From contig OY776328.1 in assembly GCA_963675515.1 (NCBI GenBank), positions 2,370,001 to 2,402,000 of the forward strand: a stretch of DNA of 32,000 nucleotides. The letters run 5' to 3'. Shown here in pieces: positions 27,245 through 29,794 of this stretch. Both the position numbers and the translations under genes were made by a program. Under the pieces are notes generated by a model. It worked only from the letters and a program-made list of their open reading frames with translations, had not been told where the DNA came from and searched no databases. This stretch comes from Coprobacillaceae bacterium (GTDB lineage: Bacteria; Bacillota_I; Bacilli_A; Erysipelotrichales; Coprobacillaceae). Within the stretch, counting starts at the first letter, position 1, and the number at the start of each line of letters is the position of its first letter.

Positions 27245-27484
27245 TTACATACCTTCGTGGAAAGTACGTGAAATTACGTCGTTTTGTTGTTCTTTTGTCA
27301 GTTTGACAAAGTTTACTGCATATCCACTGACACGAACTGTCAATTGTGGGTATTTTTCTGGATGTGCTTGGGCATCCAATAATGTTTCGCGGTTGAAAAC
27401 ATTGACGTTAAGGTGGTGACCACCTTGTTCAACGTAACCATCCAACATGTTCACTAGATTATCTACTTGTTGTTCGTTAGCCAT
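27245..27484 (-). CDS. Stand-alone glycyl-radical domain protein (GrcA/YfiD-like), equivalent to the C-terminus of PflB
   Basis: 79 aa. [55 protein letters not shown] is collinear with the last ~65 residues of E. coli PflB, including the RVSGY glycyl-radical signature. Own SD: AAGGAG, 8 nt, ATG. Confidence 0.9.
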
Positions 27485-27498
27485 TTGTCTGTCTCCTT

Positions 27499-27714
27499 TT
27501 AATATTTGTCCGATCCCTCATCGCCATATAGTGGCATGTTTGGGATTTTGCAGGCAGTATCGCCGACTTCGCAGTTGCAGCCCTCGGTGATGCTTGCCTC
27601 TTGCAAATCCACTGTTTCAGGATTTTGAACTATTACATTAATATGTCCACTGCCTCTTTCGGCGATCGAATCCAACATATTAACAAGATCGTCAATATTT
27701 TGTTCCTTAGACAT
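27499..27714 (-). CDS. Diverged paralog of the glycyl-radical domain lacking the radical glycine motif (71 aa)
   Basis: The N-terminal 35 aa are about 55% identical to the 79-aa ORF ([32 protein letters not shown] vs [32 protein letters not shown]). The tail [13 protein letters not shown] replaces [12 protein letters not shown]. Own SD: GAAGGA, 7 nt, ATG. Confidence 0.65.
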
Positions 27715-27730
27715 CTTAATTCCTTCTTTC

Positions 27731-29794
27731 TTATTTGTTATCTAAATCTTCAAGGTTAAGATCTACTTCAAGGTCACCCATGAATACTTGATCGTCCTTA
27801 CCTAAAGCTCCAGGAATGATTGAGAAAGTGTTTGAGATACCATCTTGCGCATCAGCGAATGGCAGCTTGGCAACTGAAGCCAATGATGAAACCGCTCCTG
27901 ATTTGTCGCGACCGTGCATTGGGTTAGCCCCTGGTGCGAATGGTTGTCCGGCTTTACGACCGTCAGGTGTGTTACCTGTTGCGTTACCGTAAACAACGTT
28001 TGAAGTGATTGTCAGGATTGAAGTAGTTGGCACTGAGTTTCTGTATGTGAAGTGGGTTTTCACATATCCCATGAATGTATGAACCAGCCAGTTAGCGATT
28101 TCGTCAACACGGTCATCATCGTTTCCGTATGTAGGGAAGTCACCTTCGATTTGGTAGTCAACAGCCAATCCAGCTTCATCACGGATCACTTTAACTTTAG
28201 CGTATTTGATTGCTGAAAGCGAGTCAGCTACTACTGAAAGACCTGCGATACCTGTTGCGAAGTAACGTTTTACTTCACGGTCATGCAACGCCATTTGGAT
28301 TCTTTCGTAAGCATATTTGTCATGCATGTAGTGGATGATGTTCAATGAGTTGACATAAACGTCAGCCAACCATTCCATCATATCTTCGTATTTTTCAATT
28401 ACGTCATCGTAATCTAAATATTCAGAAGTTACCGGACGGAATTTAGGTCCTACTTGCTTTTTCGATTTTTCATCGATACCACCGTTGATTGCGTATAACA
28501 AGCATTTTGCCAGGTTGGCACGGGCTCCGAAGAACTGCATTTCCTTACCTAATCTCATTGAAGACACGCAACAAGCGATTGCATAGTCATCACCATGAGA
28601 AACGCGCATCAAATCGTCATTTTCGTATTGGATTGAAGAAGTTTCGATTGAGATTTTAGCACAGAATTTTTTGAATTCATTTGGCAAACGTGTTGACCAT
28701 AATACAGTCAAGTTCGGTTCAGGAGAAGTTCCCAAGTTGATCAATGTGTGAAGGTAACGGAAAGATGATTTCGTTACTAAGTGACGTCCATCAACACCGA
28801 CACCACCGATTGATTCAGTTACCCAAGTTGGGTCTCCGGCGAAAATCGCGTTGTAATCAGGTGTACGGGCGAATTTCACAAGACGCAATTTCATGATGAA
28901 GTGGTCGATGAATTCCTGAACTTGTTCTTCAGTGTAAGTCCCGTTGTCCAAGTCACGTTGAGCATAGATGTCGATGAAAGTAGAAGTTCTACCCAATGAC
29001 ATTGCCGCTCCGTTTTGTTCCTTAACGGCACCCAAATAACCGAAGTACAGCCATTGGATCGCTTCTTTTACGTCTTTTGCAGGTTTTGAGATGTCAAAGC
29101 CATATGAAGCAGCCATTTCCTTCAATTCTTTCAAGGCGCGCATTTGTTCAGACAATTCTTCACGCAATTGGATATTTTCAGGGTCCATGCGAACTCTTGT
29201 TGTATCTTTTTGCCAGTTTTTGTCTTCGATCAGACGATCGATACCATAAAGTGCGACACGACGGTAGTCACCGATGATACGTCCACGTCCATACGCATCA
29301 GGAAGTCCAGTGATGATGTGTGAAGAACGGCAAGCTCTCATGTCTTCAGTATAAACGTCAAATACTCCAGCGTTGTGAGTTTTGCGGTATTTAGTGAATA
29401 TTTCCACAATTTGAGGATCAACTTCATAACCATTGTCTTTGCATGCTTGTACTGCCATACGGATACCACCGTTTGGTTGTAAAGCACGTTTGAAAGGTTT
29501 GTCTGTTTGGAATCCGACAATTGTTTCTAAATCTTGGTTTAAGTAACCAGCTCCATGGCTAGTCAAAGTAGATACGATCTTAGTATCCATATCAAGAACG
29601 CCACCAGTGGCTCTTTCTTGTTGAGTCAACTCCATTACTTGATCCCATAATTTCGTTGTTGCTTCAGTCGGACCTGCTAAAAAGCTGTCATCTCCATCAT
29701 AAGGAGTGTAGTTTTTTTGGATAAAGTCTCTTAAATCGATTTCTTTAATCCATTTACCAGCAGTAAATCCAGACCATTCATTTTTGAAATTCAT
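27731..29794 (-). CDS. pflB: Pyruvate formate-lyase (formate C-acetyltransferase) core, lacking the C-terminal glycyl-radical domain
   Basis: 687 aa. PflB-like throughout, with the Cys-Cys active site [12 protein letters not shown]. The alignment to PflB ends at ...[14 protein letters not shown], followed by a unique 17-aa tail and a stop. Confidence 0.9.

Follow-up and report, generated by a model that had tools for sequence, protein, structure and literature searches.

A probable naturally split pyruvate formate-lyase, with a conserved small protein encoded between its two parts, in a Coprobacillaceae genome

Pyruvate formate-lyase (PFL) is the textbook glycyl radical enzyme and a main route to formate and acetyl-CoA in anaerobes. 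Here we describe a PFL locus in a 32,000-nucleotide (nt) stretch of a Coprobacillaceae genome (assembly GCA_963675515.1, contig OY776328.1, positions 2,370,001 to 2,402,000)—hereafter, the window, in whose numbering all positions are given—where the enzyme is encoded in separate pieces: a 687-residue catalytic core devoid of the glycyl-radical finger, a 71-residue protein of an unannotated family and a 79-residue glycyl-radical protein of the GrcA3 family. Our analysis indicates that these genes probably constitute a working three-gene operon for a naturally split PFL, and not a broken gene.

Organization of the locus

Open reading frame (ORF) analysis of the window revealed three consecutive ORFs on the minus strand, encoding proteins of 687, 71 and 79 residues in this order, each preceded by a Shine-Dalgarno-like run and starting with its own ATG. 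The features of the locus are listed below, from the upstream end of the operon to its terminator.

29818 to 29920, minus strand: two weak sigma-70-like promoter matches (candidates), upstream of the core
27731 to 29794, minus strand: PFL catalytic core, 687 residues, without the glycyl-radical finger; stop codon at 27731-27733 (Pfam, TIGR01255 and alignment with 1h16)
27734 to 27784, minus strand: acidic C-terminal tail of the core, 17 residues, an instance of VFxGD(L/I)(D/E)x(D/E) that replaces the link to the radical domain
27715 to 27730, minus strand: 16-nt spacer between the core and the middle ORF, GAAAGAAGGAATTAAG, with Shine-Dalgarno-like AGAAGGA; conserved in sister species
27499 to 27714, minus strand: middle ORF, 71 residues, unannotated small-protein family; stop codon at 27499-27501 (profile searches and hhalign)
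27485 to 27498, minus strand: 14-nt spacer between the middle ORF and the 79-residue ORF, AAGGAGACAGACAA, with Shine-Dalgarno AAGGAG
27245 to 27484, minus strand: GrcA3-family glycyl-radical protein, 79 residues (Pfam, NF038360 and alignment with 1h16)
27219 to 27240, minus strand: terminator-like hairpin and T-run directly 3' of the 79-residue ORF, at the end of the three-gene operon

The stop codon of the core and the ATG of the 79-residue ORF lie 246 nt apart. Given the tight spacers with their purine-rich Shine-Dalgarno runs and the single terminator after the third ORF—a terminator search of the operon found none between the three ORFs—the genes look like one transcript. The number of sigma-70-like matches upstream of the core was not above that obtained with shuffled sequence. 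An earlier note on this DNA, made from the letters alone, had described the split; its coordinates, quoted peptides, stop codons and Shine-Dalgarno sequence all proved right when the sequence was read again.

One pyruvate formate-lyase divided over two chains

The core matches the PFL-like family of Pfam (PF02901) at 738.7 bits and belongs to TIGR01255, formate C-acetyltransferase, in NCBIfam (1110.7 bits against a cutoff of 994.2, over profile positions 2-669 of 744). It aligns with residues 9-682 of the E. coli enzyme (1h16), with Cys408-Cys409 (28568-28573, within AIACCVS) corresponding to E. coli C418-C419; the GRIIGDYRR, GDPxWxTESIGG and pyruvate-binding arginine motifs of E. coli PFL are likewise kept in the alignment. 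The radical glycine is not on the polypeptide that bears this active site: the RVSGY signature is missing from the core and occurs only once in the window, on the 79-residue ORF (27320-27334, with the codon of the radical residue, Gly54, at 27323-27325). The motif alignment with E. coli PFL thus bears out the suggestion of a core with an intact catalytic apparatus and no radical glycine of its own.

With 168.3 bits, the 79-residue protein passes the threshold of NF038360, rad_fix_GrcA3, which is set at 158; the match joins residues 3-79 to positions 2-78 of the 78-position profile. It falls below the thresholds of the GrcA/YfiD spare-part proteins (TIGR04365, 97.3 against 170; NF008341, 111.1 against 145) and of GrcA2. 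It is made up of the docking helix, one strand of the barrel and the RVSGY finger, and it aligns with residues 680-759 of 1h16. Its cluster at 90% identity has 2457 members, and the GrcA3 name is already carried by relatives in Lachnospiraceae, Oscillospiraceae, Helcococcus, Mordavella and others. The two alignments with the E. coli enzyme (9-682 for the core, 680-759 for the small protein) thus add up to one PFL, with no overlap or gap and a cut at around V680.

Pfam leads to the same picture. The 79-residue ORF covers positions 50-106 of the 106-position Gly_radical profile (86.4 bits) and the core covers positions 1-51, so that the domain is divided between the two proteins at profile position 50/51. 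This complementary coverage, together with the E. coli PFL alignments, upholds the claim that the two pieces amount to one normal PFL. The earlier note had also expected the PFL-like domain on the 687-residue ORF only and Gly_radical on the 79-residue ORF only; the two assignments stood, but the second is not exclusive, as the first 51 positions of Gly_radical lie on the core as well.

Conservation of the layout and selective constraint

The exact core and middle-protein sequences are singletons, derived from one 2.88-Mb contig. In a sister species of Erysipelotrichaceae, a middle protein with 87% identity was found on at least 24 contigs from independent metagenome assemblies. Layout and synteny were the same at all eight sister-species places inspected—with the 687- and 71-residue genes called in 8/8 and the 79-residue gene in 7/8, the eighth place (L005) having a 79-residue gene that was not called but is intact by tblastn. 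There is a 1-nt difference in the spacer of the sister species, and a third species, the middle protein of which is 82% identical, displays the same three-gene layout. Between these species, the ratio of nonsynonymous to synonymous substitution rates (dN/dS) was 0.035 in the core and 0.01-0.06 in the 79-residue gene; in the middle ORF it came to 0.07-0.25. All three genes are thus under purifying selection. A search of independent assemblies and species for a continuous pflB yielded the three-gene split instead.

To cover a broader range of organisms, we scanned one genome per species with the 79-residue protein. At least 600 stretches matched, 589 of which were confirmed, and the best 80 loci were analysed. 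These belong to Lachnospiraceae, Ruminococcus, Oscillospiraceae, Acutalibacteraceae, Christensenellaceae, Erysipelotrichaceae and Gastranaerophilales/Melainabacteria, with a few metagenome-assembled genomes (MAGs) labelled otherwise. In every locus having upstream DNA with a PFL core (75/75), the core ends at the equivalent of window residues 668-687 and the small gene is separate, with core-to-small-gene gaps of 10-452 nt that show no conserved relation of reading frame. Identity to the window ranged from 69 to 81% for the core and from 80 to 91% for the small protein. The layout is thus not peculiar to this genome; it is common to many gut and rumen bacteria of Clostridia-class families, Erysipelotrichaceae and Gastranaerophilales. 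The comparison of related pflB loci therefore agrees with the earlier reading of a split into separately translated pieces without a frameshift: other assemblies and species have the same arrangement, every piece starts with an ATG behind a Shine-Dalgarno sequence of its own, and all three ORFs are under purifying selection.

Variations on this arrangement were also observed. Two contigs from a viral collection (L091:4001-6264 and L103:3551-5814) have the reversed order, with a grcA3-like gene 17 nt upstream of a PFL core that is 66% identical. At L026:5001-5246 and L084:5001-5237, grcA3 stands alone, with no PFL core within 5 kb; there it adjoins a divergent gene of about 221 codons, the product of which appears Crp/Fnr-like judging by its N-terminal sequence.

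The activase gene and the case for complementation in trans

The earlier note had reported no pflA in the window, and we came to the same result: the CxxxCxxC/DGPG activase signature was found in no frame of the 32 kb, and no Radical_SAM match was detected among the 27 window ORFs scanned. Nor was a pflA gene found within 6 kb of the operon in the sister species. At least 45 of the 80 related loci have a gene bearing the PflA signature immediately after the small gene, and all four of the PflA-like downstream genes checked were TIGR02493 equivalogs. The presence of pflA directly 3' of grcA3 in many relatives points to a usual operon of the form core-(middle)-grcA3-pflA.

In PFL chemistry, the radical is held on the equivalent of Gly734 and passed to the cysteine pair, and a core that has no radical glycine can therefore not be active alone. 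The conservation of the core, its intact active site and its operon partner pflA in relatives argue that it is active; if so, the 79-residue protein must supply the finger in trans. From these sequence relationships, we strongly infer that complementation of the core by the 79-residue protein would be obligatory.

A conserved third component and an alternating cysteine module

The ORF between the two pieces had been seen before but treated as incidental. Its presence (27499 to 27714) holds; what had been missed is its role as a putative partner, for it belongs to a conserved family. The middle ORF has no Pfam match, and NF038360 of NCBIfam matches it weakly, over residues 3-35 only. Profile-profile comparison (hhalign) showed its first 31 residues to be homologous to the first 31 of GrcA3 (95% probability, E-value of 2.5e-8)—the segment that in E. 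coli PFL forms a helix and a barrel strand (residues 684-709). The protein can be divided into this GrcA3-like helix and strand (approximately residues 7-29), a further strand (residues 38-43), a cysteine loop (C46, C48, A54-C55 and P58) and an acidic end. The C-terminal part of the family is unrelated to GrcA3, with the consensus ...V.T..STDC..G.KGAC(C)QPTE..., and the invariant or nearly invariant residues are D15, G21, G23, H24, A54, C55 and P58; only two cysteine positions are conserved. We considered homology of the middle protein to the whole radical domain and rejected it, because the hhalign match covers the first 31 residues only and the likeness by eye of 'TVKSTDC' to 'TVRVSGY' is statistically unsupported.

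A profile search retrieved at least 609 clusters of this family at 90% identity. Among the matches listed (120 of these clusters), the proteins have 65-81 residues and no Pfam domain, and any name given by the source is hypothetical. Exhaustive HMMER searches gave 219 representatives at 50% identity, and the 150 listed were mostly of 50-130 residues. The AlphaFold2 (AF2) model of the middle protein alone is of low confidence (predicted local distance difference test, pLDDT, of 57.6). It places a helix at residues 7-20 and strands at 24-29 and 38-43, and leaves the cysteine loop disordered. A Foldseek search with this model against the PDB returned nothing at E <= 0.001, and a profile search of PDB sequences with the protein gave chance matches only, e.g., 'ACCVPTEL' in BMP-2.

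The tail of the core offers a further view of this third component. The earlier note had called the acidic tail of the window core unique, a claim that does not stand: VFxGD(L/I)(D/E)(I/L/V)(D/E), following GK(D/E), is present in most of 74 related core tails, which are 2-51 residues long, and the window version reads FMGDLEVDL. None of the 48 loci with a middle ORF has a cysteine in the core tail, which ends after the acidic motif; where the middle ORF is missing (26 loci), the core tail extends in 22 cases into a cysteine motif with at least two cysteines (...DLDCSNGACASPTLFEGLD..., ...EECKDQACMIPNL... and ...GCCE... are examples). Moreover, a hidden Markov model of the C-terminal halves of the middle proteins matches the clearest of these cysteine-bearing core tails, with E-values of 4e-8 (L074), 5e-7 (L087) and 1e-5 (L015). 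As the cysteine motif is carried by the middle protein in some loci and by the core tail in others—and never by both—the cysteine module is a recurrent accessory of the split enzyme. On these sequence grounds, the middle protein appears to be a conserved third, accessory component of the split PFL.

Such a chimeric middle gene could have arisen by tandem duplication over the tail, the stop codon, the Shine-Dalgarno sequence and the 5' end of grcA3. A fused, one-piece PFL is encoded on a contig of the viral collection (L104:1964-4231): it has only GKEEDSRIDNLV at the tail position, and its unsplit junction reads ...ALGKEEDSRIDNLVAIMDGY..., which provides a reference for what the split inserted. 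In two MAGs of Gastranaerophilales (L072:4965-5246 and L085:314-589), GrcA3 has an extra C-terminal ...GNSCGC and the adjacent core tails end in CGCCEGTCQ, which hints that the cysteines of both partners may cooperate.

Alternative explanations

Four other explanations of the locus were weighed. It is improbable that the 79-residue protein is a spare part only, which would repair a full-length PFL encoded elsewhere, with the truncated core acting as a non-catalytic or regulatory paralogue or as a stress-only, 'oxygen-cleaved-like' acceptor. The NCBIfam name of the family, 'rad_fix_GrcA3, autonomous glycyl radical cofactor', fits such a role, as does the finding of grcA3 without an adjacent core at L026, at L084 and on phage contigs; for E. 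coli GrcA and Y06I of T4, the function of a spare part is well established (PMC8683613; PMC13450708). However, the adjacent PFLs, 75/75, lack exactly the segment that the small protein supplies, the core combines a dN/dS of 0.035 with an intact active site, and pflA sits in the same operon in many relatives. GrcA3 has, in addition, an extra N-terminal helix (E. coli residues 680-700) with no counterpart in E. coli GrcA.

A second alternative concerns the middle ORF, which could be a partial copy of the 5' part of grcA3, in decay and without a function. Its homology to GrcA3 is limited to the first 31 residues or so, the comparison with the closest species gave a dN/dS of 0.25, above that of the adjacent genes, about one related locus in three lacks it and no confident AF2 fold was obtained for it. 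We nonetheless deem decay unlikely: the family is old and diverse, with its 219 representatives at 50% identity, it has seven invariant or nearly invariant residues (those from D15 to P58 named above) and a dN/dS well under 1, and its cysteine loop strictly alternates with that of the core tail.

It is highly unlikely that the pieces are joined again after transcription—by ribosomal bypassing or frameshifting, by an intron or by split-intein trans-splicing. Introns are known in glycyl-radical genes of phages, T4 nrdD being an example, and the core and the 79-residue ORF happen to share a reading frame in the window, 246 nt apart. However, the in-frame stretch between them contains nine stops, the sister-species spacer shows a 1-nt difference, the gaps of 10-452 nt lack any frame conservation, and the intervening sequence is a coding gene under selection. 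Read-through or recoding was rejected on account of the nine in-frame stops and the lack of frame conservation. An intein was rejected as well: no Hint or intein domain was matched in Pfam or NCBIfam, the core tails, at 2-51 residues, could not accommodate half an intein, and the start of the 79-residue protein, MANEQQ, has no conserved Cys/Ser/Thr junction.

Finally, the chance that the stops are sequencing or assembly errors, or that the locus is a recent frameshift pseudogene of a one-piece pflB, is negligible: the window does hold a 1-nt frameshift, in a gene of the phosphotransferase system (PTS), a sign that errors or pseudogenes exist in this genome, but the layout of the PFL genes is identical in at least 24 independent sister-species assemblies and recurs in 75 other species—which excludes an assembly error or frameshift—and the pieces are separated by about 250 nt of extra coding sequence, not by a point change, with a Shine-Dalgarno sequence and ATG for each and purifying selection on all three ORFs.

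Proposed mechanism and points against it

For the naturally split PFL, we propose the following mechanism. The core is the ten-stranded barrel with the Cys-Cys site, ending where the C-terminal radical domain would start (at approximately E. coli V680), and the 79-residue protein is the missing radical domain, made as a separate chain. A PflA-type activase would place the radical on Gly54 of the small protein, either free or docked; the free protein is a plausible substrate of PflA by analogy with E. coli GrcA, which has been reported to be one. The radical-bearing small protein would then insert into the core and complete the active site. Upon cleavage by O2 at the glycine, plausibly only the 79-residue subunit would need replacing. 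The middle protein, for its part, might dock like the N-terminus of GrcA3 and so bring its cysteine loop to, or near, the vacant radical-domain socket; with low confidence, we suggest that it may be a placeholder, guard or regulator of the empty socket.

Half-of-sites behaviour of the PFL dimer has been reported (PMC12338860). A more speculative picture, which we consider possible yet doubtful, is that of a three-component 'cartridge' PFL in gut and rumen bacteria: a long-lived core, a disposable GrcA3 activated off the enzyme and a pseudo-radical third part (the 71-residue family or the cysteine tail) that would occupy or guard the socket, perhaps on the silent protomer of a half-of-sites dimer, thereby controlling loading or protecting the active-site cysteines, with phages bringing a GrcA3-type subunit of their own.

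Several observations weigh against a working split enzyme of this kind. With no pflA in the window or within 6 kb of the operon in the sister species, the activase would have to be encoded elsewhere. Four loci carry neither the middle ORF nor a cysteine tail and, together with a solved relative of the core (38la, see below) that ends directly after GKE, they imply that the cysteine module is dispensable in some lineages. A middle protein placed in the GrcA3 socket would compete with GrcA3 on a given protomer, and the predicted model of the middle protein is of low confidence. The NCBI name 'rad_fix' implies a spare part, not an obligate subunit, and a second, full-length pflB could be present elsewhere in the 2.88-Mb genome.

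If the split enzyme is real, it would offer a natural and direct test of the idea that the radical domain has to leave the barrel for activation by PflA, and it would explain how enzyme killed by oxygen might be renewed cheaply in strict or oxygen-exposed gut anaerobes. It would also call for a correction of annotation—with 'truncated' formate acetyltransferases and 'repair' GrcA3 proteins being two halves of one enzyme—which bears on metabolic models of formate production in gut and rumen, and it could serve as a template for engineered modular or repairable radical enzymes. The middle protein, in turn, links a conserved, uncharacterised family of small proteins to PFL.

Relation to known systems

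The closest point of reference is E. coli PflB (1h16/2pfl; TIGR01255), with which the locus shares the barrel, the Cys-Cys site, the pyruvate-binding arginine motifs and the RVSGY finger. Whereas the E. coli enzyme is a single chain of 759 residues, here there are two chains cut at approximately residue 680, with an acidic tail on the core and a small protein encoded between them.

E. coli GrcA (YfiD) and Y06I of phage T4 (6owr; TIGR04365) resemble the 79-residue protein in being small, separate proteins with the PFL radical finger that presumably dock into a PFL devoid of a functional radical domain. Yet E. coli GrcA coexists with a complete PflB, which it rescues after oxygen cleavage, while the 79-residue protein adjoins a PFL that never had a radical domain. 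The two also differ in extent: residues 68-126 of E. coli GrcA (127 residues) match GrcA3 only from GrcA3 residue 20 onward, and the 79-residue protein, unlike GrcA, carries the docking helix equivalent to E. coli residues 680-700. The small-protein family itself has already been defined by NCBI curators as NF038360 and named as a repair factor, 'autonomous glycyl radical cofactor GrcA3'; in contrast with the repair that this name implies, the context described here, where 75/75 adjacent cores are truncated, points to an obligate subunit.

Among solved structures, the core comes closest to two PDB entries named 'Formate acetyltransferase', 38lb (739 residues, 1183 bits) and 38la (687 residues, 1142 bits). 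Both are cores of this split type, without the radical domain, and both are proteins distinct from the window core. The tail of 38lb contains cysteines (...GKSGNVMFGECDMCEMKELDDV...), while 38la stops directly after GKE. A search of PDB sequences retrieved no chain resembling GrcA3 or the middle protein from these two entries, and a literature search retrieved no paper on them; their presence in the PDB indicates that this type of enzyme is under structural study.

Other glycyl radical enzymes also have small cysteine-containing proteins whose genes adjoin that of the catalytic subunit, namely BssB and BssC of benzylsuccinate synthase and HpdC of 4-hydroxyphenylacetate decarboxylase, which bind [4Fe-4S] clusters through four-cysteine motifs. 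The middle protein differs from these in having two conserved cysteines, no sequence similarity and an N-terminus derived from the radical domain; the four-cysteine cluster motif was not found in the middle family, nor was any Pfam or NCBIfam match to a family of this kind. A radical enzyme in two separately translated polypeptides is also known from phage Aeh1, where nrdA is split by a homing endonuclease gene and the two products reassemble. That case is due to a mobile endonuclease gene in one phage lineage. In the PFL split, the intervening gene encodes a small protein that is no enzyme, and the division is ancient and occurs widely among cellular genomes.

Current reviews treat a detachable radical domain purely as an emergency spare part, known from enterobacteria and T4, and a 2026 review of glycyl radical enzymes names only YfiD/GrcA in this role (PMC13450708). 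The full-text literature searched yielded no account of a natural split PFL or of GrcA3, nor did targeted reading of PMC13450708, PMC12338860, PMC8683613 and PMC13252398; unpublished or non-open work may exist. The reading of GrcA3 as an obligate subunit and the third component thus appear to be undescribed in the searchable literature, while the small protein is already catalogued. As GrcA3 is a named family and homologous cores are in the PDB, the novelty is below what the earlier note had assumed.

Phage-borne GrcA3 genes and other contents of the window

Viral contigs of 19-230 kb from IMG/VR (L092 and L094-L102) encode GrcA3-type proteins with approximately 80-84% identity and have no PFL core within 4 kb. 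At L095:3986-4228, the gene order is nrdD, nrdG, the grcA3-like gene, RNA ligase and polynucleotide kinase, which parallels the case of Y06I in T4. In hosts with a split PFL, a GrcA3-type gene of a phage would supply the radical subunit itself.

The remaining features recorded in the window are the following.

421 to 6297, minus strand: type I restriction-modification system (HsdM, HsdS and HsdR)
6521 to 10014, plus strand: nadA-nadB-nadC with a 3H-domain regulator
14869 to 16558, plus strand: two adjacent MinD/ParA-like ATPases with ferredoxin-type 4Fe-4S inserts
26729 to 26989, minus strand: very acidic ORF of 86 residues, downstream of the operon terminator, with no family match

The 86-residue acidic ORF was considered as a part of the PFL system and rejected, having been found only in two sister species (81% and 62% identity). 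On the other side of the operon, at 30010-30684 (plus strand), a gene divergent from the core encodes a 224-residue protein with two PRD domains and no detectable RNA-binding (CAT) domain, and its position is conserved in the sister species. Lastly, the PTS EIIC-GAT gene (22600-24017, minus strand) consists of a 217-residue and a 258-residue ORF, owing to a 1-nt deletion near 23381 relative to the intact 472-residue gene of the sister species. This lesion is either a true frameshift, making the gene a pseudogene, or a sequencing error, and it looks quite unlike the PFL split.

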